Shown piece after piece: positions 4,640 through 63,380 of a stretch of DNA of 64,000 nucleotides. The translations under genes and the position numbers were made by a program. Position 1 is the first letter of the stretch, and the number at the start of each line of letters is the position of its first letter. The stretch is taken from IMG/VR virus record IMGVR_UViG_3300013936_000014. One strand, given 5' to 3'. Under the pieces are notes generated by a model, which had not been told where the DNA came from, did not search any database, and saw only the letters and a list, made by a program, of their open reading frames with translations. The DNA comes from a virus (lineage: Duplodnaviria; Caudoviricetes).

Positions 4640-5926
4640 ACCCATCGGGCTGATAATCGAATCAACCCATTCAGGATTCTCCTGAACATTCTCGTTCTTA
4701 TCCAAATACCATCTGGACACTCCGAATTTATGATATTTCTTGAATATGTTTGCAATCTGCGGGTCGTAATGAGGAGCGTGGGCGCCTTTGATCAAAGTCT
4801 CGTCCGGCTCATCGAGCGACAGCCAGTCCGGATACATTGCCACACAGGAAGTCTTCACGCCTTCGTTGAACAACCATTCTAATGGCTTGCCTTCCCCATG
4901 GAGTTCTTTCGTATAAAGGAACACCATCTTCGGGAAGATCGCCGGACGTTTGTGGCCAGGATGTCCTTGTCCTTCGCGTCTGACTTTCAGTGCCGTGGAC
5001 CAAACCAGAGCGCCGAATCTCGTTTCGTCACATCCGCCGGTGACGGTGATGAACGGGTAATCGCCGCGGCTTGAAGCCACAGTGTTGAACGTATGCTCGA
5101 ATCCCTGGAATACCTGCTCGATATCCCTTTCGACTTTCTTGATCGCGTACTGATCCGCCGCATGCTCATCGTAATTGCCGTTCGTCAAAGCGCAGAGCGT
5201 TTTGTACTCGAGCATGTATTTGTCATAGGTTTTTTCGGCATAGGGGGCCAAGATCGAATCTATCTCCGGCAATGTGAACCCCCCGTATTGCTGAGCCGCG
5301 CAATTCAGCGTGATGTCGCTGATCAGATTGCCTGCGGTTCGCACATCTTTAGGCTCATTGTAACCTATATGCTCCCACTCAAATCCGCCTTGCAATACTT
5401 TACCCATATCGAATAAACAGCAGTTTCCTGTGTCCAGCCTAGCGGACAGATCATGTATATAAATATACCCGTCGCTCATGGCGGACAATTCCTCTTTGCT
5501 GAGAAAATTCTTTTTGTAGATCTCTTTATTCAACGCGGAATACACCATGCTTCTCTTCGTGGAGACGAGAGCCGCCGATGTGTTCGCGTTGCTGCGATCT
5601 ATCTTGTAATTCATTTCATCCGCCGTTTTGAGGACGTTATCCATCATTTTGATGAAATCTTCCTTGTAGTTGCGGTAATCCCTATATGCCTTCGCGACAT
5701 CTTTATTCACTTTATCCAAAGCGCACTCCACGAAATTGTGCATCTTGGCCACAGGGATATTATCTTGTCCGTCTTTCTCGATTTCTTCTCCGATGAACCT
5801 CTTTATGTCTTCGAGGTCTTTGCCAGACAAAGAGATATTCACCCTATCCGCCGACTTACTCACCGCGGATCTGATTTTCTCGAAATCGAAAGGGACACAA
5901 TGATTGTCTTTTTTAATAACATTCAT
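4640..5926 (-). CDS. nrdD: Anaerobic ribonucleotide reductase, exon 1 (ATP cone; ends ISPMG)
   Basis: N-terminal ATP cone, IYIHDL, NCCLFD, QQYGG, IFPK; spliced product ~756 aa. Confidence 0.92.
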
Positions 5927-41602: not shown

Positions 41603-43271
41603 GTGCCAGTTGTGCAGAATCTATATCAGATCTTCAAAATTCCGGCGTCCGTCTTGGTCGCCAAAAACTGCATTTGGGACAATTATTCAAGAGCCCAAGG
41701 CTACAAAGACGGGAACATCGTCTCCATCGGCGACAACATCGTGTTCCAGCAGCTCCGCTATATCCACGGCGACATGCGCGAGCATCATGAGATCTTCAAT
41801 TACATCCAGCGTCTTCGCAATTCCATGAGGCGCTACAAAAAAGAAGGGAAGAAAGAAGAGGCGAAGATACTGGGATACAGGATAAACCAGGTCATGTTCG
41901 TGGAAGACATCGTGAACGTCTTCGTGGACGGCAAGAAATCCGATTTCCACAAATTCCGCACCAAGGGGTTCGAATTCAATGGGCACAGATACGTCTATCT
42001 CTGCTCGGGCGCCGGCCAGATCCGCCGCAACACCGCCACCTTCGTGCGCGAGGAATACCACGACAGGCTCGTCAAAACCATCAACTGCGGGCTCGACGAG
42101 AAGACCTCCGAGTTCGTCCTGGCGAAATACAGCGCCTACTTCGCGCTCGCTTTCTCCTCGATACTCTGGGTCCGCACCCCCCGCTGCTGCGTCATCAGGG
42201 ATTTCAAAAGAAACCTTCCCAAACAACCCGTCGACTTCATCTGCAAGGATGCCGCCGGCAAATCGATCATCGAGAAGCGCGAGATGGACGTCGAGCTCAA
42301 CTGCTTCGACGGGCAGGGGCTCATAGACCCCGAGTTCGCGCAGCTCTGGTCCGAGGACATGGACCTCAACTACACGCCATGCTCGTTTGTCGCCCGCTCC
42401 TGCTTCGTCAAGGGGAACCTCGCGACGTTCGACTTCAAAGCCTATGCCCGCGAGCACGGGATCAAAACCGTCAGGGACCGCTGGGGCAAGGAATACGACG
42501 TCGAGGACATCGACGTCATCCTCTCGGAGTCCCAGTTCAAGACCGCCAAGTATTACTCCTCTTGGGAGGAATACCTCGGCTACGCGAACGCGGGCAGCAT
42601 CCACTGGGGCGTCGCGAGATACAACAGGGAGACGGACGACGAATGGGTGCTGGCAAACTACCAGTACATCCAGTCGCTCACCCTCTCGAAAGACGACATC
42701 AAGGGGCTCATCGCCCCCACGATCGACTGGATAAGGAAGATCTGCTCCGGGGATGAGCTCTACACCCTGCTTTACTGCTTCGGCCCGAAATCCGGCTCAA
42801 GCGACTATCGGCAGATGCTTGGGACGGCGCAGACGACCATGATGAAGGCCATCGTGAAAAACGTCGACTTCCTCAAGGACTCATACGTTCAAGGCAAAAT
42901 ATACAAGAACATCGCCGAGACGATAAACAAGGCGAAGATCGGCAAGATATGGGTGCATGGCAATTACCAATTCATGGTGTCCGATCCGCTCGCCCAATGC
43001 CAATGGGCGCTCGGGCTCGACCCGGTGGGCGGGCTCAAGGCGAACGAGATATACTCAAAGTTCTGGAGCGACCGATTGCGGGAAGACCCCGCACGGGATA
43101 CGGGTTGCCTCGTTGACGCGTGCAGATCGCCGTTGATCGATCAGCATGAGCACAACCCGATGAGCGTCATCATGAACAACGAAGAAGCTGACAAATGGTA
43201 CAGGTTCCTGCCGAGCGGAATAATCTACAACTGCTACGACACGAGCTGCGCCAGGCACAGCGATTCGGACT
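41603..43271 (+). CDS. YonO-like single-subunit RNA polymerase, exon 1
   Basis: RdRP-like double-psi-barrel motifs (SGAGQIR, FDGQG, RSP); ends ..HSDSD+T. Confidence 0.85.
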
Positions 43272-43648
43272 TAACATCTAGGTCTTCCATATGGCGACAT
43301 ATGGTCAAGTCTTGGTGAACACGCAAAGTGGTGTGGGAGGGGAATCCCTCCTGCTAACATCAAAAACCGTAAAATAGGTATTGAAATGGAACGCAACAAA
43401 ACAATCGGCAATAAAAAGAAACAAAAGAGTCGATGGCTATTTGATAAGAAAAATACCTAAAGGCAATGATGTGCCAAGCCTCCGCAAGGAGGAAGGTGCA
43501 ACGACTAGGGAAACCGCCGGCAAAGCCGGAGAAGGGAGTACCGTAGGGGCGTCTGAGATGACGTCTCGAAGTGCCAAGCAACTCGGAAACGAGTTGAAGA
43601 AATAGTCTAAGCCCCTAATAAATATCGGGAAACCGAGGGTATCAACTG
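43272..43648 (+). mobile_element. Group I intron within the RNAP DFDGD motif (377 nt)
   Basis: P1 GGACU/GGUCU with U.G wobble; P7 GACUA/UAGUC; terminal G; splicing gives GAC TTC GAT GGT GAC. Confidence 0.9.
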
Positions 43649-47924: not shown

Positions 47925-47991
47925 CGTCGACTAGGCGACGTTAAACAGCCGTCAGGCCTAGTGCGTCCTTCCTTTTAAGGGAAGGGGTCGG
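47925..47991 (+). ncRNA. Pistol self-cleaving ribozyme
   Basis: P1 CGUCG/CGACG; loop ACUAGG pseudoknots with CCUAGU; UUAAACA linker; P2 CCG/CGG; GCG; P3 hairpin; GU cleavage site at 47987/47988. Confidence 0.88.
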
Positions 47992-48020
47992 ATCGTATAT
48001 CCGAGAAAGGAGATACTCTC

Positions 48021-48236
48021 ATGAAGTATCGTTTCATTTCGTTCCGCACTTACGGAACAGGCGTCGTTCAATACGACACAAAGGCATTCATGTCTGAAGA
48101 CATGGGTGCCTTGATCGAGGCCGTCTGCCAGGAGGCCCGAATCCTCTTGGCGAACGGCCACGACCGCATCACGGTCCACGAGACCTGCGATGCGGAGGAC
48201 GCGAAAAGATGGAATATTTCCATCTGCCGCGTCTAA
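48021..48236 (+). CDS. Hypothetical early protein
   Basis: AAAGGAG RBS; 71 aa. Confidence 0.7.
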   Translation: MKYRFISFRTYGTGVVQYDTKAFMSEDMGALIEAVCQEARILLANGHDRITVHETCDAEDAKRWNISICRV

Positions 48237-49152
48237 GCCGCAAGGCCCCTCTCTCAAAAGAGAGAGGATCGGTGCAAGCCCGATGCCCCGAAAGGGGTGG
48301 CGCTCATGGCCTATGACCATCGAGGTTGCTCTCGTTAAAAAGCTATGGCGCTTTCAGGCGCCAGCGTCGTGCGAATCTTGACGCACGATGGCTGGGCAAG
48401 ACGCTTGAAGGCAAATGCCAGCGGTGGCAAACTCACCATCGCCCAGACGGGGGTCATCCCCGAACGGTGCAAAGCAAATAACCTCGCTTTGCGTAGTAAA
48501 AAAGAGGTAGACGCCCCTGCTTCCGCGGATCATCCGCAGGCGGTTGGGAAACGCACAAAGGAAAGCCAGGACTCAGAGCCTGGCGGCCCGATAAGGGAAA
48601 AGATGGAGCGACTGCAATCCAGGCAGGAAATGGCTTGGACTAACGCGCAACAGCGGCGCGGCGGGAAAACGATACCACTGATTTGATGTGGCTGGGTGAG
48701 ACGCCTCTCTTCTATGTCCTTCGACCGACGATCGAGGGAATGCGGATGGAGGGATGGCGGAAGTACCTCTGCCTCCTCATGCACGTTTCATGAGGGGGTT
48801 GGCACAGAGGGAAAACAGTCGCACCTCAAGGTGGGAGCTCGGTTGCGAAGCAACCAGGTGCACGGCTCGAATGGGGGAGATTCCCCCGGGCCCGGGAACA
48901 AAAATGACATGATTCTGCGGTGTCTTGGGTAGGTTTGCGTCGAAAACCTATCTCCGCGACCCTCAATCGTGTCTCTAGTCAACTGGAGCATCCTCCCTCA
49001 CGATGGAGGGTAACGTCTGCTTCAACGTCGTCGTGAAGAGGCAGTGAGGCGGCATCACGCCAAGACCAGGAAAATGATGGCAGATATCGGACGCGAGGGC
49101 GCTAAGGCCACGACAACGTTCGCGTTCCGGACAAAACATAGTGGCACCGCCA
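48237..49152 (+). ncRNA. Large structured non-coding RNA candidate (~0.9 kb)
   Basis: No RBS-led ORF; more than 15 hairpins; long-range helices; ends at a terminator. Confidence 0.65.
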
Positions 49153-49180
49153 GGGGCTGTCTTCGGACAGCTCCTTTTTC
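49153..49180 (+). terminator. Intrinsic terminator
   Basis: GGGGCTGTC-TTCG-GACAGCTCC-TTTTT. Confidence 0.85.
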
Positions 49181-49240
49181 TTAATGCGGCAAGCTGGTCC
49201 CAAGCCCAGCGGAAGACGCAGAGGGAGAAAGGAGACTGAT

Positions 49241-51181: not shown

Positions 51182-51292
51182 ATGAAAAACGAACAGAAAG
51201 TCTACGCAGAGATCTATTCTTACGGGGTTTCGGACCACATCGTATGGACAAAGTCCATAACATCTTCAATAAGAAGTACGACAGTCTTTTAA
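51182..51292 (+). pseudogene. 36-aa chimeric remnant of the duplicated 52009-53088 block
   Basis: 51194-51243 is identical to 52018-52067; 51243-51369 matches 52962-53088 with 3 mismatches. Confidence 0.85.
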
Positions 51293-51313
51293 ATTAAGGT
51301 CTGTTGTCAATTC

Positions 51314-51369
51314 CCGTCCCGAGCATGACGCTAAAAGGCTCTGGTTGGACTTCCATTAAAAGTCAACGA
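51314..51369 (+). repeat. Intergenic element type A (pseudoknot plus hairpin-CAACGA), copy 1
   Basis: CCGTCCCGAGCATGACGCTAAAAGGCTC...CAACGA. Confidence 0.9.
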
Positions 51370-51394
51370 TGTGTTCATTAGGAGGAAAACAAAA

Positions 51395-51991
51395 ATGGCT
51401 AACATTTGTTCAAACCAATACCGCTTCGTCTTCTCGACGGAAGAAGCGGCGAAGAAATTTGTCGAATTCGTAGAAAAGGAGACCGAAGAAAACTCTTCGG
51501 TTTATTTGCTCGGCATCAAAGCCGGCATCGCCGATGCGAATAACAGAGACGTTAGAGAATGGGAGGATACCGTGTCCTTCCGTTCTCCAGAAAACAAAAA
51601 AGAGGTGATGATTTACTCCGAGTCGAAATGGACGCCCTGTCCGAACGCTTGGAACGACATTGCGAAGACCTTCGACGAGAGGGTCGCAACATATTACGAG
51701 GCCGAAGAACCAGGATGCGGAATTTGGGCTTCTAATGACCCGGATTTCATTGGGAAATTTGTCGTCGATCCTTGTGTCGGGGAGGGATTCCCCGAAATTG
51801 ATAAACTCAATTATGGGGTTTACAACTACGAAGAAGTCGTGAAAATTCTTGATAGACTTCTAACAGGGAAAGGAGCCGGAATCCTTGATGATCTTGAGAC
51901 GTTGCTCTCGAAATTGAAGGCATCCAAGTACAAGGATGTTTTGTACGTTAATGAGATCATTGAGCAGCCACTCTCTAACTGGAAACAGTAA
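51395..51991 (+). CDS. Hypothetical protein (YubB-like)
   Basis: MANICSN, SESKWTP, YYEAEEPG. Confidence 0.65.
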   Translation: MANICSNQYRFVFSTEEAAKKFVEFVEKETEENSSVYLLGIKAGIADANNRDVREWEDTVSFRSPENKKEVMIYSESKWTPCPNAWNDIAKTFDERVATYYEAEEPGCGIWASNDPDFIGKFVVDPCVGEGFPEIDKLNYGVYNYEEVVKILDRLLTGKGAGILDDLETLLSKLKASKYKDVLYVNEIIEQPLSNWKQ

Positions 51992-52008
51992 GAAAAGGGG
52001 AATAGGAT

Positions 52009-52293
52009 ATGAAAAAGCAGAAAGTCTACGCAGAGATCTATTCTTACGGGGTTTCGGACCACATCGTGTGGTTCGACTCTCTGGAAGAGGCGGAAAAAGC
52101 GCTAGAAGAGCATATCGCCGCCATGCGGAAGGTCGGCGATTACGAGATCTTCAGAGATTCCGTTGCCGACGGGATCAAGATGACGGAGGGCGACATGTCC
52201 ATCACCATCTACATCCCATCGGGAAACGACGACGAGTGCGACCTTAACGTCGCCTTTGTCATCATCAGACCAATGAAAGGAGAAGGGAAATGA
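52009..52293 (+). CDS. Hypothetical protein
   Basis: ORF with RBS. Confidence 0.65.
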   Translation: MKKQKVYAEIYSYGVSDHIVWFDSLEEAEKALEEHIAAMRKVGDYEIFRDSVADGIKMTEGDMSITIYIPSGNDDECDLNVAFVIIRPMKGEGK

Positions 52294-52625
52294 AAACGTA
52301 TAATCTCAAAGTCGAAAAATGGAACATAGAAGAGGAGACGGGTTACAAACCGCTGTTCACCTTCTATGAGGATTTCTCCATCGCGGAGCCCTTCGGGGCT
52401 TCCGCCGTCGAGGAGACTTTCGATAGGATCTTCGAAGAGTGGAAAGGGGATCATAAAGCCCTGACCGAACTCGTGATGGCCCTCAATTGGAAAGTCTGGG
52501 TTCTTTTCGAAAGGGGGTCCAAACTGGCGGAAGTCTATTCCAGACTTTGGAATAAGGCGGACAGCTATGCCGTCTCTCACCTCAAAGGCGAGGAACTGTC
52601 GTACTTCTACAGGACGACAGACTGA
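52290..52625 (+). CDS. Hypothetical phage protein
   Basis: TFYEDFSIAE.FG, LTELVMALNWK, YFYRTTD. Confidence 0.7.
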   Translation: MKTYNLKVEKWNIEEETGYKPLFTFYEDFSIAEPFGASAVEETFDRIFEEWKGDHKALTELVMALNWKVWVLFERGSKLAEVYSRLWNKADSYAVSHLKGEELSYFYRTTD

Positions 52626-52633
52626 AAACGATC

Positions 52634-52687
52634 CGGGGAAGGAAAACCCCTCAAACCGCTTTGGGGATTCAGCTCAAATCCCAGCGA
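52634..52687 (+). repeat. Intergenic element type B, copy 1
   Basis: CGGGGAAGGAAAACCCC..AAACCGCTTTGGGG..hairpin..CAGCGA. Confidence 0.85.
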
Positions 52688-52716
52688 CATTGAAGCAATC
52701 ATAGGAGGAAAACGAA

Positions 52717-53016
52717 ATGAAAGACTTCAAGAAATTAGCCAAGCTCGTCAAGGAGCTCGACGCTCAGGACATCTGGGCCTACATGCTTGAGATCGCTACC
52801 GTCATCGACGGCAGAGGCGACCTCTCCGAAGGGCAGAAAGAGGATGCTTACTCTTTAGCGTCAACGGAATTCGAGAATTCCGAGGACAGCTCCATCGGCG
52901 CCAACGTCTTCGCCGAGGCGGCCATCGAAACCGTCTTGGATGAGGATTACGATGAGGATGATATGGACAAAGTCCATGACATCTTCAATGAGAAGTACGA
53001 CAGTCTTTTAAATTAA
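52717..53016 (+). CDS. Small acidic protein
   Basis: GGAGG RBS; D/E-rich. Confidence 0.7.
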   Translation: MKDFKKLAKLVKELDAQDIWAYMLEIATVIDGRGDLSEGQKEDAYSLASTEFENSEDSSIGANVFAEAAIETVLDEDYDEDDMDKVHDIFNEKYDSLLN

Positions 53017-53032
53017 GGTCTGTTGTCAATTC

Positions 53033-53088
53033 CCGTCCCGAGTATGACGCTAAAAGGCTCTGGTTGGACTTCCATTAAAAGTCAACGA
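53033..53088 (+). repeat. Intergenic element type A, copy 2
   Basis: As copy 1, with GAGT giving a U.G pair. Confidence 0.9.
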
Positions 53089-53111
53089 CGCGTGTTTTGA
53101 TAGGAGGAAAA

Positions 53112-53765
53112 ATGATCATGAAAAACACAATTCAACAAAATTTGGCCGCCGCGGCGGCAGCCAAGAAGGCAGAAGAAGCGGCAAGGAAAGCAAGGGCCGC
53201 AGAGGAGGCCGAACGAGCAAAAATCGAGGCTTTTGCCAAAGAACATGCCGATGTCGGCATTTCCACGATAAAAGGCATCATCGATGCCGCGAAGAAAGGA
53301 GAGCTCTTCTTCATCGCCATGGGAAAAGACGGCTTGGTCGCCGATTATGCGACCTCCGCGAAAGACGCCCAAAAACACGTTGAATGGATTTACAAATCCG
53401 CCCGTGAAAACAAGGAGGAATTGCTTCTCGATTCCTCAGCCATCATGGCCGGCATGATGGAAATGCAAAGAAAGTTCCAGATCGCGCATGACGCGATCGA
53501 AGCGGGGCTAATCCCAGAAGACGTCATCATCGACGAAGACAACGTCGAACACTGGGTGGCGGGCAACAGAGCCTACTCGACCGATGGGGTTGAGGAAGCA
53601 AACCTCGACGATATCGAGACGAGACTTTCTCTCAAAGACCGCAAAACGCTCCTCAAGGAGAGGATCAAAAAGTATCAGGAGCAATTGAAAGCTCTTGAGG
53701 AGGAAGAGGAGGGAGATGCAGACTCCTCTTGGGAGGAAGAAAACGACGGCGAAGAATATGAATGA
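53112..53765 (+). CDS. Hypothetical protein with acidic tail
   Basis: GGAGG RBS. Confidence 0.65.
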   Translation: MIMKNTIQQNLAAAAAAKKAEEAARKARAAEEAERAKIEAFAKEHADVGISTIKGIIDAAKKGELFFIAMGKDGLVADYATSAKDAQKHVEWIYKSARENKEELLLDSSAIMAGMMEMQRKFQIAHDAIEAGLIPEDVIIDEDNVEHWVAGNRAYSTDGVEEANLDDIETRLSLKDRKTLLKERIKKYQEQLKALEEEEEGDADSSWEEENDGEEYE

Positions 53766-53783
53766 TAAAACTTTGATTGCTTT

Positions 53784-53836
53784 CGGGGAAGGAAACCCTC
53801 CAAACCGCTTTTGGGGTTCAGCTCAAATCCCAACGA
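53784..53836 (+). repeat. Intergenic element type B, copy 2
   Basis: CGGGGAAGGAAACCC..AAACCGCTTTTGGGG..CAACGA. Confidence 0.85.
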
Positions 53837-53864
53837 AATTTTTCAAGAAAAGGAGAAAAATGAA

Positions 53865-56198
53865 ATGAGTTTTCTGAAAGAAACCAAATATGACGCAGGT
53901 CAGATCAGAAAAGACCTCACCTGGGAAGAAGCCAAGAAATTGCCTCTGTACATCAGCACCCCGAAAGGGAACGTCTGGGAAGGAGACAGAAAGGTCTCTT
54001 CGGAGGAGATCAGCGCCGGCAACTGCTACATAGCGAACGTCAGCGGCAAAGACATCCTCCTTTATTTCTTCGAGAAGGGGGAGTTCAATGGGATGAAAGG
54101 GGTCAGGCTCCATCTCATAAGGAAACGCCTGTCAAAGGCAAAATCCAAAGAGGAAATCTCCGTCGACGCGACCGGAGCGGAGCCGAATTGGATTTTCATA
54201 ACGCCCGATTGGAAGGCTTATGACAAGCAAGGGGAGCCCATATCCGCAAAGAGCCACTCGTACGGACGTGGCACGGGCTTTGGGTATTATGAGATTTCCG
54301 ATTGGAGGAAATATTCCCATGACCTCAGGATAACCGGCGAATTCAAAGAAACCCCTTATAACGAAAAGTCCGAGTGGCTGTCCCCGGCCAGCGTGGAGAT
54401 CCTGAAGGAAGCCGGATTCGACATGGAGACGAGGCCGGTTTCAAACTGGGAATTGCGGTGCGACTATTGCACTGAGGCTCCGGACGATTCCTACTCAATA
54501 GAATGGTTCGTGGGGAATCTCCTTCACCCCAACCGGATAAACCGAAGAAAGAAGATGTGCGCTTCTTTGCTTCACGACTATCGCTTCTATGATTCTTTTC
54601 TCGGAGGAAGGATATTCGGGATCCTAACGGAGAACGACCAAGCATACGGTGTCTTTCACTTGTTAAAAGAAGTATATAAATCGAATGCAATAATCGTATT
54701 CTCTTTGAAGATGCAGGGAAAGAAAGACATCCCGCCTTTTCTGGTCACGGAGAAAGGAAGCAAGACCATCTCTTCCGAGTTCATGCTCGAAAGCATGAAG
54801 GTGAGACCTTGCTGGTTCTCAAATTCGGAAAATTTGACCGCGGAGGAAATCTTGAAAGAGCTCGTCTCTCATGAAAGCTCCTTGGAACGAACGGAGGTCT
54901 TCAAGAATCTAATTCCTTTGCTGAAAGAGACTTTGAAAGAAATCTCCGTGAAAGGAGAACCTTCTTTCGACGCGATATGCAATCTGCTCTATCTTTTGAC
55001 CCCCAATGGGCAAAAAGACAGGGTTTTTGAAGAGACGCTGAAAGAAAACGGATTCGAAGAGGCGATGTCTGCCTCAGATTTCTTGGGGAAGATAGCTTGG
55101 AATTTGCCGCCCAATCTCAAAAAGAAAACCCCTTATTCTCAGGTGGGCTTGCCCAAAAAGATGTATTACGAGCTGAAGCGGCTGCCAAGAGGAAAAGGGG
55201 AAACGATAAATCTCGGTGGTATAATTCAGGCCATTTCCCCACGTTCTGACAGGGTGTCGTGCACAAATTCAAAAGAGAGAAAGGAGGCATACAAACCTTT
55301 TTTGGATTTCTGCTCCCATGCGGATCCGGCATTTCTGGACGCTTTCGCGGAATTCTCCGCGAGAGTCAAACAGATTGGAGGGAGATTCATGGGCAGGGAA
55401 GATTGGGCCACCATGTTCAGTCTGGGCGGAGGAGACCCCGCATCTCCGGTATCAGCCAAAATCAAGACTCTCGGCAGATCGATAAGGAAGATGCCCTCAG
55501 ACAATAGCAACCTGAAAGGCCTGCTGGACTATGAATGGGCCGATTACTACAGGCAGATAGAGGAGCTATCCCCCCTTGGGCTTGACTGGCCAAAGAGATA
55601 CGAGGCTTTCTCTTCCAAAAACGTCGCCTACTTCCTGAAGACCGTCAAAAGACGCTTCCCATCAATAGTGGACAACTCATACGCTTTGACAGAGAATGAC
55701 TTAATGTCGGCTCCTCTGGAGAAGAAAATGACGATGTTGCATGCGCTGCAGAATCTCATCTCCTCGGAAAACGAGCTGGAAATCGAGAAGGCGGAAATAG
55801 CGGGGCTGGACAACAAGTATGCACCATGGAGGGCGCAGCTTGCAAAATCCCTGTCCTGGAAAGGCAAAGATCTGGAGATCATCATCCCGGAAAGCCTGGC
55901 CGAACTTACCAGGGAAGGGCGGCTTCTCTGCCACTGCGTCGGCAGCTACAAGCAAGATGTCGCCGCCGGGAAAGAGGGCATCCTCTTTCTGAGAAAGCTG
56001 TCTTCGCCCCAAACCCCCTTCTTCACGATAGACGTGGTGAAAAAGGATGGGAAGTTCTCGGTGAGGCAGTGCCATGGGAAATGCAACAGCAATCCCACAC
56101 CGGAAATCGTGGAGGCCCTGAAACAATGGGCAAAAGCCACCGGGAAGATCGATGAGAGCTCAATCTCTTCGGCCTACAGGGCCCTCTGCCATCTGTGA
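53865..56198 (+). CDS. PcfJ-like domain protein
   Basis: C-terminal IIPESLAELTREGRLLCHCVGSY...ILFLRK...PFFTIDV...QCHG. Confidence 0.8.
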   Translation: MSFLKETKYDAGQIRKDLTWEEAKKLPLYISTPKGNVWEGDRKVSSEEISAGNCYIANVSGKDILLYFFEKGEFNGMKGVRLHLIRKRLSKAKSKEEISVDATGAEPNWIFITPDWKAYDKQGEPISAKSHSYGRGTGFGYYEISDWRKYSHDLRITGEFKETPYNEKSEWLSPASVEILKEAGFDMETRPVSNWELRCDYCTEAPDDSYSIEWFVGNLLHPNRINRRKKMCASLLHDYRFYDSFLGGRIFGILTENDQAYGVFHLLKEVYKSNAIIVFSLKMQGKKDIPPFLVTEKGSKTISSEFMLESMKVRPCWFSNSENLTAEEILKELVSHESSLERTEVFKNLIPLLKETLKEISVKGEPSFDAICNLLYLLTPNGQKDRVFEETLKENGFEEAMSASDFLGKIAWNLPPNLKKKTPYSQVGLPKKMYYELKRLPRGKGETINLGGIIQAISPRSDRVSCTNSKERKEAYKPFLDFCSHADPAFLDAFAEFSARVKQIGGRFMGREDWATMFSLGGGDPASPVSAKIKTLGRSIRKMPSDNSNLKGLLDYEWADYYRQIEELSPLGLDWPKRYEAFSSKNVAYFLKTVKRRFPSIVDNSYALTENDLMSAPLEKKMTMLHALQNLISSENELEIEKAEIAGLDNKYAPWRAQLAKSLSWKGKDLEIIIPESLAELTREGRLLCHCVGSYKQDVAAGKEGILFLRKLSSPQTPFFTIDVVKKDGKFSVRQCHGKCNSNPTPEIVEALKQWAKATGKIDESSISSAYRALCHL

Positions 56199-56202
56199 TA
56201 CC

Positions 56203-56255
56203 ATGTCCTGAGCATGACGTTAAAAGGCTCGGCTTTGCAGGCCTCAATGCAACGA
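56203..56255 (+). repeat. Intergenic element type A, copy 3
   Basis: ATGTCCTGAGCATGACGTTAAAAGGCTC...TGCAACGA. Confidence 0.88.
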
Positions 56256-56282
56256 TGTGTTAAACGAAAGGAGAAAATAGCT

Positions 56283-57029
56283 ATGGAAAACGTTAACACA
56301 AACAAGGACATCAGAACAGATGTCAAGCCGATCATGGACAAAATAAAAGTCCATGGAAAACCGATTGACAAATCGGATTTTTGGTTCTACGTCGAGGGAG
56401 ACCTCAAAACGGTCTTCCATGTCTCCGAAGGAGACGGGACGAACCTTTCGGAAGAAGATGAGGCCGAAGGATTCTCTGATTATATCTATTACGACACCTA
56501 TGAGGGGGCAATCTCCTACAGGATGATCGATGCCTTCATGGAAGGCGATACTGAGGCGCTTGACGACCTCGCGTCGGACGGAGGGCAGGTCATGCTTTAC
56601 AATCATTATACGGATTTGTCTTTGAAGCAAATCTGCTACAAAGTTCTTGATATGACCGGCTACAGCCATCCGGAGAATCTTGTAGTCAGAATTCTTTCGG
56701 GGGCGTGCGCAGACGCAGTTTTCCTCGATAAGGACTTGCCGGAGGATTCGTTGGCGAGGCAGACCTGCATCGCCATTTGGTACAAAACCAAAGGCGATCC
56801 TCTCAAGGCCATGGAGATCCTCAAAAAGAAGATCCCCCTTGACCAAGCCTACATCAGAGGCGTAGCCAAGGCAGAAAAAAGAGAAATCGAAAGACTAGGG
56901 GCGAAACTCCGCGTCGTAACCGACGAGGATTTCCCAGATGAGCTCAAGAAGATCACTCCAATCTCCCTCTGCTATATCGAAAAAGACGGGATGTACTCTT
57001 CTTTGCCGATTTTCTGCGGTATAAAATAA
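56283..57029 (+). CDS. Hypothetical protein with a C-terminal DprA-N-terminus-like segment
   Basis: AIWYKTKGD...ILKKK...VVTDEDFPDELKKI. Confidence 0.6.
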   Translation: MENVNTNKDIRTDVKPIMDKIKVHGKPIDKSDFWFYVEGDLKTVFHVSEGDGTNLSEEDEAEGFSDYIYYDTYEGAISYRMIDAFMEGDTEALDDLASDGGQVMLYNHYTDLSLKQICYKVLDMTGYSHPENLVVRILSGACADAVFLDKDLPEDSLARQTCIAIWYKTKGDPLKAMEILKKKIPLDQAYIRGVAKAEKREIERLGAKLRVVTDEDFPDELKKITPISLCYIEKDGMYSSLPIFCGIK

Positions 57030-57043
57030 AGGAGGAAAAGAAA

Positions 57044-57289
57044 ATGAAGCGTCAAATTAGGAAGGTCTTCCGCACCGAAAAGATGCAGAGACTCGCCCAA
57101 GAAGTAGTCGACAGAATCGACTATTCTGCAGAGGAACTCAGCGACTCTCTCGTTGAGGCCCTTGATGCTGCCGTCACGTGGAATGAGGATAAGTGGGCGG
57201 TTGTCGCCTACTACAGCCTCCCCGAGAAACCGTTGCCTTATGATAAGGCGGCTTGCAGATTCTTGGAAGACCTCACGAACTGCGTCTGA
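57044..57289 (+). CDS. Hypothetical protein
   Basis: GGAGG RBS. Confidence 0.65.
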   Translation: MKRQIRKVFRTEKMQRLAQEVVDRIDYSAEELSDSLVEALDAAVTWNEDKWAVVAYYSLPEKPLPYDKAACRFLEDLTNCV

Positions 57290-57294
57290 AAGAC

Positions 57295-57344
57295 CCGTCC
57301 CGAGCATGACGTTAAAAGGCTCGGCTTGCGGCCTACCGCAACGA
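57295..57344 (+). repeat. Intergenic element type A, copy 4
   Basis: Core plus TTGCGG-ccta-CCGCAACGA. Confidence 0.9.
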
Positions 57345-57374
57345 CGTGGTAATATATCAAAGGAGGAAAATGAT

Positions 57375-57950
57375 ATGAAAATCACCAAAAAAGAATTTCT
57401 GCAGAAGGATACTTGGGTCAACAAAGACTCAAGAACCATTATCACATCCGACATCACTTGGCTAGAAGGTGTCGGAGAAGTCCATCATGGCTTCAATATG
57501 AAGCAGAATATGGATAAGACCAAATTCGAAGAGGCTATGAAATGGAAAAATCCAGGAGATTACATCCTGGAAAAATATCCGGCCGACGGAACTTTTCTCC
57601 CGAATAGGCTTATCAGGCTCTCCATCGATGAGGCCTACGACAAAGTATCACAATGGGGGCGCGCGGAGAGCTTCACTTATGAAGAACACTCATTTGATTA
57701 CCAAATTTCTCTATGGAGAGGATACGGATATCAGATGAATACGTCTTTGGCTTTCGAAGCCAAAGACGAAGAGGAGGCTCTCATAAAAGCGTCTCTGGCC
57801 GACCCGAACGCCGATATAGAGGAGGCCGATGAGGGGCAGGTTCAAAACGAGCCGCCAGTTGATCAGGCGGTGTATTTGGACCGTTCTGAGTACGATGCAC
57901 CAAATATCTACTTGAACATTGAAAATGCACGAGTAGAAAAACTTGACTGA
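57375..57950 (+). CDS. Hypothetical protein
   Basis: AGGAGG RBS. Confidence 0.65.
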   Translation: MKITKKEFLQKDTWVNKDSRTIITSDITWLEGVGEVHHGFNMKQNMDKTKFEEAMKWKNPGDYILEKYPADGTFLPNRLIRLSIDEAYDKVSQWGRAESFTYEEHSFDYQISLWRGYGYQMNTSLAFEAKDEEEALIKASLADPNADIEEADEGQVQNEPPVDQAVYLDRSEYDAPNIYLNIENARVEKLD

Positions 57951-57965
57951 AAGGAGGTGAGAGCC

Positions 57966-58367
57966 ATGACACTGACCTATTGGTTCGGCAAGGACAACGA
58001 CGTCGAGTTCGAATACGAGGTCGACGAGAGATACGCGGATTATCTCGCGGATTATCTCGAAAACGAATATTCGAGCGTCGAGGAGGCCGTCAAAGACATC
58101 TACAAAGACGTGGACGACGAGGAAGAGGAGCAGGAGGCGCTCAAGTGCGAAAGCCTGAGCGACCTCGCGAGCTTCATCCGCGAGAGAGACGAATCCTGGG
58201 CCGAGGACATAGTCTGCAGAGATGGGAGCTACGTCGACTATCTCGAAGAGACCCTCAAAGACAAATACGAAGACGAGGCCAGCGAAGCGTTCGACGACGA
58301 GAACGACGGCTGCGACCCGGACGGCTTTTATGGCTGGGACGATTACTGGCATTGGAAGAACGGCTAA
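57966..58367 (+). CDS. Highly acidic small protein
   Basis: AAGGAGGTG RBS; very D/E-rich. Confidence 0.7.
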   Translation: MTLTYWFGKDNDVEFEYEVDERYADYLADYLENEYSSVEEAVKDIYKDVDDEEEEQEALKCESLSDLASFIRERDESWAEDIVCRDGSYVDYLEETLKDKYEDEASEAFDDENDGCDPDGFYGWDDYWHWKNG

Positions 58368-58373
58368 GCGCGT

Positions 58374-58427
58374 CGGGGAAGGAAAACCCTATAAACCGCT
58401 TTTGGAGTTCGGCTCAAACCCCAACGA
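58374..58427 (+). repeat. Intergenic element type B, copy 3
   Basis: CGGGGAAGGAAAACCC..AAACCGCTTTTGG..CCAACGA. Confidence 0.85.
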
Positions 58428-58454
58428 TCTCGCGCATTTGGGAGGAAAAATGAA

Positions 58455-58844
58455 ATGGCGACATTCAGAATCAAAGCCACCGCGACGGTGGAAATCGAAA
58501 AAGAGATAGAGGCCTCATCGAAAGAAGAGGCCAGAAAGCTCTTCTTTGACAACGGCTTCTCCGACATCGTCGAAGAAGCCGACTCGGCATCCGTGGAGGA
58601 CATCGACGTCGACGAGGTGGACATGGTCAGCATGAGATACGTGGTCAAGGCGTACGACATCAGGTATTTCCTCGATGATGAGGAGCCAAGGAAGAATCTT
58701 CCGACGGAACTCATCCTGGAGATCGACTCCGACGGGGAGAAAGAAGACGTCGATTTCGACGGCCTCGTCGGCGACGCGATCGAGGACAGGATCGGATACG
58801 AGCCCGTCAAAGACTTCAAATACCGCGTAATCGAGGCAAAATGA
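58455..58844 (+). CDS. Acidic hypothetical protein
   Basis: GGAGG RBS. Confidence 0.65.
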   Translation: MATFRIKATATVEIEKEIEASSKEEARKLFFDNGFSDIVEEADSASVEDIDVDEVDMVSMRYVVKAYDIRYFLDDEEPRKNLPTELILEIDSDGEKEDVDFDGLVGDAIEDRIGYEPVKDFKYRVIEAK

Positions 58845-58901
58845 CGCAAACCGTCCCGAGCATGACGCTAAAAGGCTCCTTTTGCGCAAGTTGCGCAACG
58901 A
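58845..58901 (+). repeat. Intergenic element type A, copy 5 (57 bp identical to copy 6)
   Basis: Direct comparison. Confidence 0.92.
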
Positions 58902-58924
58902 TGCTGAGAAATCACAGGAGGAAA

Positions 58925-59833
58925 ATGAAAATGAAAGATTTCAGCAAATTAAGCAGAGGAGAGAAAGCCTTTGCGATGAATGAGGTCATCGAAAGCCTCA
59001 ACGTCGAGACGGCATACTATTCCGATTGGCTCAACGAATGGCCGGACGGGGCCACCATTGAAGAGGCAAAAGACGATTTCGACATTCATGCCTCGGACTC
59101 GAAAGAGGACCGGGACTCCAAGGAAAGCCTTTGGGAAACCCTGGAAAGAAAATTCCGGATCAGAGTCGAGATGTTCGGATGCGAGGATGGCCGCTCCATC
59201 CAAGAGGAGGACGTCGTCGGGCTCTGGGTCCCGAAAACCAAGAATCCGGAGTATGAGGAAGATGAGAGGGGAGGAGGCTTCGCCATCCTTAAAGGCGAGG
59301 AAGGAAAGCTCAATAGGGTGAGAAAGACCCTCGAGGAGCTTGGATATCCCCTTACCCCGACGGAAGAAGGAAAGAATTACTATTCCTTCTTCGTGGACTG
59401 GAGGAAATGGAGGCTGCAGAAAGCGGTCTCCTTCATCCTCAAGTCGGCAGAGTGGCTTAGTCAAGAGGAATGCGGGTGTTGCACCATCCGCCTGACGAAG
59501 AACACCCAGCTTGCCGTTGGATGGGCGAACGGCTTCGATCCCGACGACAAAACGATCATACATTCCAAAACACAGCCCGAATGGGCGATCGCCGTGGCGG
59601 TCAAATCCCTCAAGGGCGACGACTTGAAGACGGATCTCGAATGGCTCACGACGCCATATGTGGCCGAAGGCGAGGATGAGGGCCTGGTGTTCTCCCAGCT
59701 GGAATGGACGCTGAGCCCGACGGGCACGGAGGATGACGCGAGAAGGGCGTTCTCCTACCTGATGTCTCAGCTGGACGGCATCATCAAGGGATACCGCCTG
59801 ATGGCTGACGGCAGATGCCTGCTCCGCAAATAG
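58925..59833 (+). CDS. Hypothetical protein
   Basis: GGAGG RBS; flanked by identical 57-bp repeats. Confidence 0.65.
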   Translation: MKMKDFSKLSRGEKAFAMNEVIESLNVETAYYSDWLNEWPDGATIEEAKDDFDIHASDSKEDRDSKESLWETLERKFRIRVEMFGCEDGRSIQEEDVVGLWVPKTKNPEYEEDERGGGFAILKGEEGKLNRVRKTLEELGYPLTPTEEGKNYYSFFVDWRKWRLQKAVSFILKSAEWLSQEECGCCTIRLTKNTQLAVGWANGFDPDDKTIIHSKTQPEWAIAVAVKSLKGDDLKTDLEWLTTPYVAEGEDEGLVFSQLEWTLSPTGTEDDARRAFSYLMSQLDGIIKGYRLMADGRCLLRK

Positions 59834-59834
59834 C

Positions 59835-59891
59835 CGCAAACCGTCCCGAGCATGACGCTAAAAGGCTCCTTTTGCGCAAGTTGCGCAACGA
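59835..59891 (+). repeat. Intergenic element type A, copy 6
   Basis: Identical to 58845-58901. Confidence 0.92.
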
Positions 59892-59917
59892 CTTGCTTGT
59901 ATAAGGAGGTAAAATAT

Positions 59918-60490
59918 ATGAAATACATATACAGCAAAGAAAAAATCGATGCAGCCATGAAGCGTCTCAGAAGGTTCCGCACCTTTAAAGCCTATATCAG
60001 CGAGCATTTCGCCGGCGGAAAGGATACCGTCATCGAAGTCTGTGGGATAGACGACGACAGAAAGGAGGGCTGGGAAAAGATCGATAAAGTTAACAAAATC
60101 CTTTCGGATCTTTTGGGCGAAGACGCCTATCTCGAATGCCACGACCATTGCTGCCACTATTGCTACATCGGAACGGATGAGCGGGCCGAAAAGGGAAGCG
60201 AGCACGACCCCATCCGGCTGAATGGGGGCAACCTGGAAGACTATCCCAACAAAATCATCTATCAGGTCCAGCAGCTCTGGAAGCAGCTTGCGGAGAACAA
60301 AGGAGACGAAGGGACCTGCGTCCTTGGGGAGAAATTGAATTTCTCCTACCAAGGGAAGCATTACTCCATGATCCCTTTGGATAGATGCCAGGGAAGCCTC
60401 TCGAGGGAATCGTACCTCAAGACAATCGAATCCCTTTTGGAATCGATCGGATGCGGCGATCTCCGCTTCGATTGGGGGATCATGGATTAG
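59918..60490 (+). CDS. Hypothetical protein
   Basis: AAGGAGG RBS. Confidence 0.65.
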   Translation: MKYIYSKEKIDAAMKRLRRFRTFKAYISEHFAGGKDTVIEVCGIDDDRKEGWEKIDKVNKILSDLLGEDAYLECHDHCCHYCYIGTDERAEKGSEHDPIRLNGGNLEDYPNKIIYQVQQLWKQLAENKGDEGTCVLGEKLNFSYQGKHYSMIPLDRCQGSLSRESYLKTIESLLESIGCGDLRFDWGIMD

Positions 60491-60599
60491 GAAGCGAGGC
60501 AAAACGCGCGTCTCCACAAATCGAAATGTCGTTAAACTTCTCTTTTCGGGCTTCAGTCAAAGCCAACGATATGCTATAATGTTCAAGGAGGCAAATGTT

Positions 60600-61073
60600 A
60601 TGAACGAACAGCAAATCAACAAAATCCTGGAAGGAATCCATTGCGGTTCCTTCACCAAGGTGGTCTATAAGACCGCCCTTCACGCCAACAAAGACCACAA
60701 AGGCGTGGAAGTCGTCAAACTGGTCAAGGCGATCGTCCGTTTTGGGGTAGAATACTCCAAAATGGCCTCCGTCAGGCAAAAGGCTGCCCAAAAAGCCGCG
60801 CTCGGCTTGGCGGTCGACACCCACAAGCTCCCATGGGGAAGCTGGAAGAACAGATTCCTCATCGAGAACAAAGGGCAGCTTTACATCCGCCTTACGTGCC
60901 CGAAGAACAATGTCTCTTTGAGACCGGTCGTCATTGGGTATTACGCCGATGGGAGAGAAATTTCCAGAGCAGAGGCTGAAAAGATGACCCGTCCATCTGA
61001 CTGGGACCAAAAAGACGAGGCCCTCGACGTCTACACCAAGAGAATCGAGGACATCGTCTCGATCGGCGAATAG
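60600..61073 (+). CDS. Hypothetical basic phage protein
   Basis: AAGGAGG RBS; LPWGSW motif. Confidence 0.65.
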   Translation: MNEQQINKILEGIHCGSFTKVVYKTALHANKDHKGVEVVKLVKAIVRFGVEYSKMASVRQKAAQKAALGLAVDTHKLPWGSWKNRFLIENKGQLYIRLTCPKNNVSLRPVVIGYYADGREISRAEAEKMTRPSDWDQKDEALDVYTKRIEDIVSIGE

Positions 61074-61079
61074 GCGATT

Positions 61080-61134
61080 CCGTCCCGAGCATGACGCTAA
61101 AAGGCTCTGATTTGACTTTCAACAAAGTCAACGA
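61080..61134 (+). repeat. Intergenic element type A, copy 7
   Basis: Core plus TTGACTTT-caac-AAAGTCAACGA. Confidence 0.9.
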
Positions 61135-63341: not shown

Positions 63342-63353
63342 GACCCGGAAGAG

Positions 63354-63380
63354 AAAGGCGCCTTGTGCGCCTTTTTTCTT
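63354..63380 (+). terminator. Intrinsic terminator
   Basis: AAAGGCGC-cttgt-GCGCCTTTTTT. Confidence 0.8.

Follow-up and report, generated by a model that had tools for sequence, protein, structure and literature searches.

The 64,000-nt virus sequence IMGVR_UViG_3300013936_000014 from IMG/VR (Duplodnaviria; Caudoviricetes), called the window below, carries seven intergenic copies of a 27-nt RNA element whose two interleaved helices define a compact H-type pseudoknot. The core consensus of the window copies is CGUC-CY-GAGC-AU-GACG-YUAAAAG-GCUC, with stem 1 formed by CGUC/GACG and stem 2 by GAGC/GCUC. Both helices covary among copies from other genomes, the element recurs in phages of many bacterial phyla, and its nearest characterized relative is coremin, an exoribonuclease-resistant RNA of RNA viruses. 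By analogy with coremin, we see about an even chance that the element acts at cistron boundaries as a directional roadblock to 5'-to-3' movement, protecting the RNA downstream from decay of the RNase J type or obstructing ribosomes.

Seven copies of the pseudoknot in the window

A search of the window for the 16-nt motif head with at most two mismatches returned the seven plus-strand copies in Table 1. The expected number of chance matches was 0.66, and none of 100 shuffled sequences reached 8 matches. A covariance model trained only on copies from other genomes was run on the 64-kb window and scored the seven sites at 41-47 bits, with the next best site at 9.5 bits. A first-pass annotation of this DNA had listed seven repeats; the pattern search recovered all of them, each at a coordinate 1 higher than the annotation gave. 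Its proposal that the variant copies keep their pairing is borne out by a U.G pair in stem 1 of the copy at 56204 and another in stem 2 of the copy at 53034.

The repeated unit in the window extends beyond the core. Each core is followed by a 3-4 nt linker, a hairpin, a conserved CGA, 13-19 nt of sequence, a strong Shine-Dalgarno (SD) sequence (AGGAGG) and the next ATG. The hairpin, termed hp2-like after its counterpart in coremin, was checked by folding each sequence singly. Its stem opens with UUG and closes with CAA in 7 of 7 copies, and the five otherwise different versions are all compensated. The annotation had missed the downstream hairpin and CGA, the spread of the element beyond this genome, its spacing of at least 5 nt from stop codons, and recent duplications. 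The seven-fold repetition derives in part from recent local duplication because pairs of copies share their surroundings, either flank or linker plus hp2-like hairpin depending on the pair. The copies at 51315 and 53034 share flanks that include the 3' end of the upstream gene (51255-51371 and 52974-53090), and those at 58852 and 59842 share flanks such as the linker and hp2-like hairpin (58846-58903 and 59836-59893). Seven copies in one genome are unusual, and most genomes have a single copy. An additional closing stem between the 5' CGUC and a distal CGAYG can be drawn for 5 of the 7 window copies; it is weak and uncompensated and was set aside as an unproven alternative fold.

Table 1. Pseudoknot copies and associated RNA features in the window.
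Feature	Position	Strand	Score (bits)	Details
Copy 1 core	51315..51341	+	44.3	Stem 1 CGUC/GACG, stem 2 GAGC/GCUC
Copy 1 hp2-like hairpin (UUG...CAA) and CGA	51345..51369	+		SD 51380, ATG 51395
Copy 2 core	53034..53060	+	41.3	Stem 2 GAGU/GCUC with U.G
Copy 2 hp2-like hairpin and CGA	53064..53088	+		SD 53102, ATG 53112
Copy 3 core	56204..56230	+	47.5	Stem 1 UGUC/GACG, L1 CU; 5 nt past TGA of PcfJ-like gene
Copy 3 hp2-like hairpin (UUGCA/UGCAA) and CGA	56235..56255	+		SD 56269, ATG 56283
Copy 4 core	57296..57322	+	44.7	6 nt past upstream TGA
Copy 4 hp2-like hairpin (UUGCGG/CCGCAA) and CGA	57326..57344	+		SD 57361, ATG 57370
Copy 5 core	58852..58878	+	45.1	7 nt past upstream TGA
Copy 5 hp2-like hairpin (UUGCGCA/UGCGCAA) and CGA	58882..58901	+		SD 58916, ATG 58925
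Copy 6 core	59842..59868	+	45.1	8 nt past upstream TAG
Copy 6 hp2-like hairpin and CGA	59872..59891	+		SD 59904, ATG 59918
Copy 7 core	61081..61107	+	43.4	7 nt past upstream TAG
Copy 7 hp2-like hairpin (UUGACUUU/AAAGUCAA) and CGA	61112..61134	+		SD 61149, ATG 61157
Terminator-like hairpin with U run	63351..63377	+		First strong plus-strand terminator after 49175
Pistol ribozyme (Rfam RF02679)	47925-47992	+	67.1
Twister-sister	48233-48316	+	56.7
Type-P1 twister-like element	49178-49229	+	43.3	Gathering score 67.2; conserved core; convincing though sub-threshold

Both helices covary

Search patterns were freed one helix at a time with the other helix fixed. The free helix is an unbiased test of pairing because each pattern constrained only the other one, and it was complementary in nearly all pattern matches, with many different base pairs. 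In 105 distinct copies from other genomes, all 8 of the 8 base pairs show changes on both sides and 94.4% of the cells are paired. The covariation score of these copies was 0.473 compared to 0.173 when shuffled (0 of 500), and controls in which the pairing partner was slid gave ≤0.17. These data establish the H-type pseudoknot that the first-pass annotation had drawn from CGUC/GACG and GAGC/GCUC. In a Clostridium sp. metagenome-assembled genome (MAG), the orthologous counterpart of copy 7 (L005:585-611) differs in stem 2 by a change that is compensated, and it also has a variable, compensated hairpin 3-4 nt past stem 2.

All four pairs of stem 1 are compensated, and the pair closing its loop is C-G in 103 of the 105 copies and G-C in the other 2. 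Stem 2 is a Watson-Crick helix between the loop and the spacer; each of its four pairs is changed on both sides, and 95.2% of its cells are paired. The unpaired bases are near-invariant, with C then Y following stem 1 and A-U (sometimes A-A) between the stems, and the core loop is the 8-nt C-Y-G-A-G-C-A-U, with a pyrimidine first, G at position 3 and A-U at its end. The long loop contains an invariant U-A-A-A followed by A-G in the main class, which includes all seven window copies, or by C-U in a UUAAACU subclass. This A-rich strand of 7 nt probably occupies the stem 1 minor groove.

Several loci depart from the simple layout. The A-U junction tolerates insertions, since the copy at L079:3696-3752 has a hairpin of ~20 nt inserted at this point between the stems. 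Tandem arrays are found at L212 (4 copies within ~300 nt), L043:361-420 and L009:6332-6390, with spacers down to 4 nt. A second knot class was found upstream of the scaffold gene in L243 (~860-905) and in L244, L247 and L249. Its bridge is the 4-nt UUUA, its junction is C-A and its strand reads YUAAAGAA, and both of its stems are compensated between loci; covariance model R1 does not detect this class.

The pseudoknot is widespread in phages

The exact 21-mer of the core was found in 11 genome contigs (Saccharimonadales, Bacillota, cyanobacteria, Geobacteraceae, Anaerolineae and others) and in 19 IMG/VR contigs. The loose patterns with one helix free returned at least 90 and at least 120 viral loci, together from at least 200 IMG/VR contigs. 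Isolated phages that carry the motif infect Vibrio (N4-like), Ruegeria, Streptococcus, Mycobacterium, Synechococcus, Microcystis, Nostoc, Arthrobacter and Bacillus, and their copies are without exception unannotated, intergenic and in the same sense as the flanking genes. Among these carriers are Streptococcus phage MissE2, whose copy (L221:2495-2535) naturally has no hp2-like hairpin, Mycobacterium phage Labelle, Ruegeria phage DSS3phi2 and Vibrio phage 1.238.A. The carriers are phages of unrelated families and many bacterial phyla, with different polymerases.

One carrier resembles an RNA virus. The 5.4-kb IMG/VR contig L103 encodes a 905-aa open reading frame (ORF) with an RdRP_1 domain and a weak match to a Peptidase_A6 capsid. 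Two knots of the phage type are found in its 3' untranslated region (UTR) at 5194-5220 and 5249-5275, the first of which begins 10 nt past the stop codon. These copies link the phage motif to the RNA virome and contradict a role at the level of DNA.

The pseudoknot resembles coremin

[quoted passage not shown] Its hairpin hp1 has a 4-bp CGUC/GACG stem, of which 3-4 bp suffice, where pairing outweighs sequence and a C-G closing pair is needed; the loop is YGAD (4 nt) or YGNNAD (6 nt), and natural loops of 5-8 nt work too (PMC6546385, PMC10520033). The spacer UUAAACUAC is conserved with A15-A20 essential, and the hairpin hp2 directly past the spacer is needed for stalling and may have any sequence of at least 3-4 bp (PMC6546385, PMC10520033). 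Xrn1 halts one nucleotide before hp1 without protein cofactors (PMC6546385, PMC10520033). Coremin has been proposed to be an H-type pseudoknot like that of beet western yellows virus (BWYV), in which the first loop base (only C or U) serves as the bridge and adenines of the spacer occupy the groove of stem 1 (PMC10321173). Tandem coremin copies have been reported for beet soil-borne mosaic virus and tomato aspermy virus.

The phage element shares with coremin the CGUC/GACG stem, the C-G closing pair and an invariant C as the first loop base, where coremin has C or U. The phage loop ends in A-U, like the A-D of YGAD and YGNNAD. The phage spacer begins UUAAA and has a UUAAACU subclass, and the copy in L043 matches the coremin spacer up to UAC. 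Both RNAs are found just past an ORF, in intergenic regions or UTRs, and both occur in tandem. A hairpin like hp2 follows 7 of 7 window copies and the L005 copy, although the wider phage family is not enriched for it. The two differ in that stem 2 of the phage element is a clear 4-bp Watson-Crick helix, whereas coremin has no canonical pairing there; the phage form also has a 2-nt junction, and its hosts are bacteria, which lack Xrn1. A search for canonical coremin with a 4-nt loop found it mainly in small RNA-virus-like contigs, plus one family of large gut-phage contigs. In that gut-phage family, the coremin head GUC-YGAA-GAC-GUUAAAC is kept in L308, L330, L332 and ~25 other IMG/VR contigs of 50-116 kb; it adjoins an apparent divergent gene start, lacks UAC and is followed by no obvious hp2.

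A Watson-Crick variant of coremin, xrRNA_WCC, was obtained by selection (Hit1/Hit2) and occurs naturally in Sanxia picorna-like virus 5 and a chrysovirus (PMC10321173). It requires hp2 to stall Xrn1, and almost no natural examples were reported (PMC10321173), against hundreds of phage copies of the present element. The one clear natural xrRNA_WCC, in Sanxia picorna-like virus 5, has a GAG/CUC stem 2, lies 8 nt past the last ORF and is followed by hp2 one base downstream (PMC10321173). The phage element likewise builds stem 2 on GAG/CUC, has adenines after stem 1, is closely followed by an hp2-like hairpin in the window and lies a few nucleotides past an ORF. xrRNA_WCC differs in having a 4-nt loop, a single bridge base (G5) where no substitution is tolerated, and only 3 bp in stem 2, whereas the phage element has a C-Y bridge, a 4-bp stem 2 and an A-U junction. 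The two-nucleotide phage bridge, an invariant C plus U or C, departs from the G5 rule of xrRNA_WCC and is closer to the C/U rule of BNYVV coremin.

Other pseudoknots are less similar. The luteoviral frameshift knots of BWYV and potato leafroll virus are also H-type folds of less than 30 nt; their first loop is 2 nt long and contains a critical C, their stem 2 is short, and an A-rich loop of 7 nt runs over the minor groove of stem 1 (PMC10321173). The phage element has a stop codon where their slippery sequence would be and shows no frameshift or read-through signal. Flaviviral and tombusvirid xrRNAs resemble the phage element in the job proposed for it, a directional 5'-3' exonuclease block, and in their tandem arrangement, and their activity against RNase J1 has been shown (PMC5760640); they differ in being ring-like folds of 60-90 nt with unrelated sequence.

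A proposed 5'-to-3' roadblock at cistron boundaries

In the proposed mechanism, the element would be transcribed within a long polycistronic phage mRNA and fold into the pseudoknot. An upstream cut in the RNA would be made by RNases of the host, or by the ribozymes (pistol, twister-sister and twister) with which the operon begins. A 5'-3' exoribonuclease, for example the RNase J of a Bacillota host, would then stop just 5' of stem 1, and the downstream cistron or tRNA precursor would outlive the upstream RNA. Bacillota generally possess RNase J. The fold, conservation, distribution, placement and similarity to coremin are observed, and from them we infer the nuclease resistance, the halt site and the benefit. 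The first-pass annotation had guessed at an exonuclease roadblock as one of three possibilities, a suggestion that agrees with the function of coremin as the nearest characterized relative.

The placement of the copies fits protection of downstream RNA. The core always lies in sense between genes, in many loci ahead of highly expressed ones. Its commonest downstream gene encodes the head scaffolding protein, capsid genes are also often downstream, and the commonest upstream genes encode Phage_Mu_F or minor head proteins. A tRNA begins 2-10 nt past the end of the core in 9 distinct loci. Many Bacillota phages have the core directly 3' of a terminator-like hairpin, which would cap the upstream RNA. 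The tandem copies, the hp2-like hairpin of all seven window copies and the two copies in the 3'UTR of the RNA-virus-like contig likewise count in favor of a roadblock. A flaviviral xrRNA blocks bacterial RNase J1 in vitro, an enzyme that xrRNAs "never naturally encounter" (PMC5760640), and folds of the xrRNA type can therefore be general mechanical blocks.

Several observations weigh against a roadblock. Coremin and xrRNA_WCC require hp2 for Xrn1 resistance, yet most phage copies lack it; across the phage family at large, a hairpin directly after the pseudoknot was present in 44.7% compared to 45.1% in shuffled flanks. At the positions of C18-U19, which coremin needs, the main phage spacer carries A-G, and in the BNYVV RNA a single change at these positions is enough to abolish stalling. 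The 8-nt phage loop compares with 4 nt in coremin (5-8 in variants) and has one more base before the G than the YG...AD pattern permits. The BWYV frameshift pseudoknot joined to hp2 does not stall Xrn1 (PMC10321173), so a similar shape is no guarantee of resistance. Finally, the motif is carried by Vibrio phages, whose hosts are not known to have RNase J.

A broader proposal is that with this element prokaryotic viruses would have their first natural class of RNA resistant to exoribonucleases (or translocases). Such a coremin-type module would be shared by dsDNA phages of most bacterial phyla and eukaryotic RNA viruses; in phages it would punctuate polycistronic mRNAs and tRNA precursors and halt RNase J, possibly also RNase E scanning, Rho or ribosomes, where one cistron meets the next. 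We rate the chances of this proposal as somewhat below even.

Stop-codon spacing and translation

The gap between the upstream stop codon and the first paired base has a sharp peak at 5-6 nt, is 5-9 nt in 61 of 174 cases and is almost never below 5 nt. The distance from the core to the next start codon is broad, from 4 to more than 150 nt. A ribosome on a stop codon covers about 5 nt downstream. The observed spacing matches this general footprint, and the knot therefore appears to be placed as near to the stop codon as possible while staying folded.

This spacing, the smallest that leaves the structure outside the paused ribosome, also suits a ribosome barrier, in which the knot obstructs post-termination sliding or re-initiation, or hides a weak SD (AAGG), and so sets translation of the next ORF. 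We regard this explanation as unlikely, though it is the strongest of the alternatives. Scanning ribosomes are blocked by coremin, which also stimulates frameshifting (-1), and for xrRNA_WCC these effects need no hp2 (PMC10520033, PMC10321173); a ribosome barrier would thus account for the phage copies that lack hp2. An AUG lies exactly 7 nt past stem 2 in 44 of 201 copies, at SD spacing from the AAGG of the loop/stem 2 junction, and in Vibrio phage 1.238.A the AUG of a gene lies 4 nt past the core with no other SD. The AAGG and the fixed AUG could form a device for ribosome loading or 5' stabilization. In 36 distinct cases, the AUG 7 nt past stem 2 opened only mini-ORFs of 3-38 codons. These mini-ORFs (L031, L033, L036-L041 and ~30 more loci) are unconserved and lie ahead of the scaffold gene.

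Other features argue against translational control as the general function. Copies before tRNAs and in the 3'UTR of the RNA-virus-like contig have nothing to translate downstream, the UUAAACU subclass lacks AAGG, and the window has its strong AGGAGG 13-19 nt past the hairpin. A read-through or frameshift signal was absent. The in-frame extension had a median of 18 codons compared to 4 and 14 in the other frames, fusions were at chance level, and there was no conserved slippery heptamer upstream of the cores, though the stop spacing fits a frameshift stimulator. Pairing of a downstream AUG(C) with the GCAU of the core showed no covariation with the stem 2 type. L224, L231, L237 and their relatives keep a GGACG-UAAAACG-AAAGGAG segment that precedes the scaffold ATG by ~20-40 nt and stands just ahead of the SD. 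The CGUCC that opens the upstream knot is complementary to this segment, and the two could pair over a long range as an alternative fold.

Processing, ligand and DNA-level alternatives

A second alternative is an RNA processing site, either a tiny self-cleaving ribozyme or a guide for a host endonuclease (RNase P, E or Y), equivalent to hammerhead, twister or pistol. The window copies follow a pistol, a twister-sister and a twister-like element in the same operon and occupy the same type of intergenic slot. Mu-like phage genes are the strongest neighbors of bacterial hammerhead and twister ribozymes (PMC10085705), and the favored slot of the pseudoknot, between Phage_Mu_F or minor-head genes and scaffold genes, lies in this ribozyme-rich neighborhood. 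The loop bases are near-invariant across phyla, and the flanks are G-poor and single-stranded. At 27 nt, however, the element is well under the size of any known natural self-cleaving class. Coremin RNA stays intact in Mg2+ buffer in lanes without Xrn1 (PMC6546385). In a set of 80 phages that encode a related major capsid protein, the motif precedes the scaffold gene in the 18 closest members. In 20 sampled from the remainder no Rfam ribozyme takes its place at the site, and several of the 20 have diverged knots there instead. Mimicry of a tRNA end was rejected because only 15 of 201 copies (7%) have a 3' ACC. Taken together, a processing site seems distinctly improbable. Both the ribosome barrier and the processing site would be compatible with the roadblock because coremin does both jobs in vitro.

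At gathering and permissive thresholds, no Rfam 15 family overlaps the element in the window or at 17 other loci. The first-pass annotation had noted a resemblance to the 5' half of the pistol ribozyme. The layouts are indeed alike in having a 4-5 bp hairpin, a loop that forms a pseudoknot and a UUAAAC-type linker, and the pistol in the window even has the same CGUC../..GACG letters in its 5' domain. The resemblance ends there. The pistol model RF02679 gave no match to the element sites at E up to 10, and the element lacks P2, P3 with the G-U cleavage site and the catalytic G or A positions, so by the tests made it is unrelated to pistol. On grounds of layout, the hammerhead, twister, HDV-like/theta and hatchet classes were rejected as well: their helix order does not fit, and there is no conserved upstream partner for the A-rich strand.

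A ligand-sensing pseudoknot with a minimal aptamer of preQ1-I-like architecture is a very unlikely explanation. preQ1-I is an H-type knot whose third loop is rich in A and whose helix junction has conserved bases, a layout typical of the smallest aptamers and shared by the phage element. Conservation of the phage element is independent of host phylum. Tandem copies occur, and the SD-like AAGG is partly buried in stem 2 in a subset. Riboswitch models gave no match at E up to 10 on a 116-nt stretch, and the variable distance to the next start codon leaves no consistent expression platform. The seven window copies precede unrelated genes of one operon, and others precede tRNAs or lie in an RNA-virus 3'UTR.

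The least probable alternative, which we consider hardly credible, is a DNA-level signal such as a promoter for a phage YonO-like RNA polymerase or a recombination site: the ~27-bp conserved box does precede many genes of a phage that encodes a two-barrel RNA polymerase, and in Streptococcus phage MissE2 the core lies a few nucleotides past a -10-like hexamer in a divergent intergenic region, but the interleaved helices covary as RNA, including G.U pairs, which recognition of double-stranded DNA does not select, the motif is strictly strand-specific relative to the flanking genes, and it is present in unrelated phage families with different polymerases and in an RNA virus.

Novelty and implications

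Full-text literature searches returned no report of the motif in phages, although an unnamed RAGATH candidate of this shape could exist (Weinberg et al. 2015), and the coremin papers (PMC6546385, PMC10520033, PMC10321173) do not mention phages or bacteria. The first-pass annotation had stated that a match to a characterized Rfam motif would remove the novelty. There is no such match, but the literature contains a clear relative. The claim of a wholly new motif is weakened because of this kinship with coremin, and the new aspect is the abundance of the coremin-type knot in dsDNA phages.

The xrRNAs described so far belong to eukaryotic viruses, and their target is Xrn1. If the roadblock reading is correct, the phage knot would extend the xrRNA strategy to bacteria and could explain differing lifetimes within one transcript, for example of scaffold and capsid compared to upstream head genes. 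The knot may also help to show why self-cleaving ribozymes cluster at the junctions where it lies. The structure of coremin is unsolved, its pseudoknot is hypothesized, and natural Watson-Crick versions have been reported as very rare (PMC10321173). The hundreds of covarying phage copies provide comparative evidence for a coremin-type pseudoknot, and if the two RNAs are related as proposed, this natural covariation would settle the pseudoknot structure of coremin. A protective module of 27-50 nt, if active in bacteria, would be useful for synthetic operons.

Genomic setting

The window encodes a terminase-like protein on the minus strand and a putative two-barrel RNA polymerase of the YonO/RdRP type on the plus strand. 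The 571-aa product of 41603-43318 (+) matches Pfam RdRP (PF05183, E 9e-9), which suggests a phage-encoded single-chain two-barrel polymerase of the YonO or crAss type. The polymerase gene is followed on the plus strand by small genes mostly without known function and by genes for PcfJ-like and GP88-like proteins. The protein at 60579-61073 has a homologue of 79% identity encoded in the Clostridium sp. MAG, where copies of the element lie on both sides of the gene, and on this basis the host is probably a Clostridium-like member of the Bacillota.

The only strong terminator-like sites on the plus strand of the window are at 49152-49175 and 63351-63377. All seven elements probably belong to one polycistronic transcript of ~14 kb, since there is no strong plus-strand terminator between 49175 and 63351. 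Three self-cleaving ribozymes stand in a row at the head of this operon. The last of them, the twister-like element, lies directly 3' of the 49152-49175 hairpin and scores below gathering because its P-stem insert is short.

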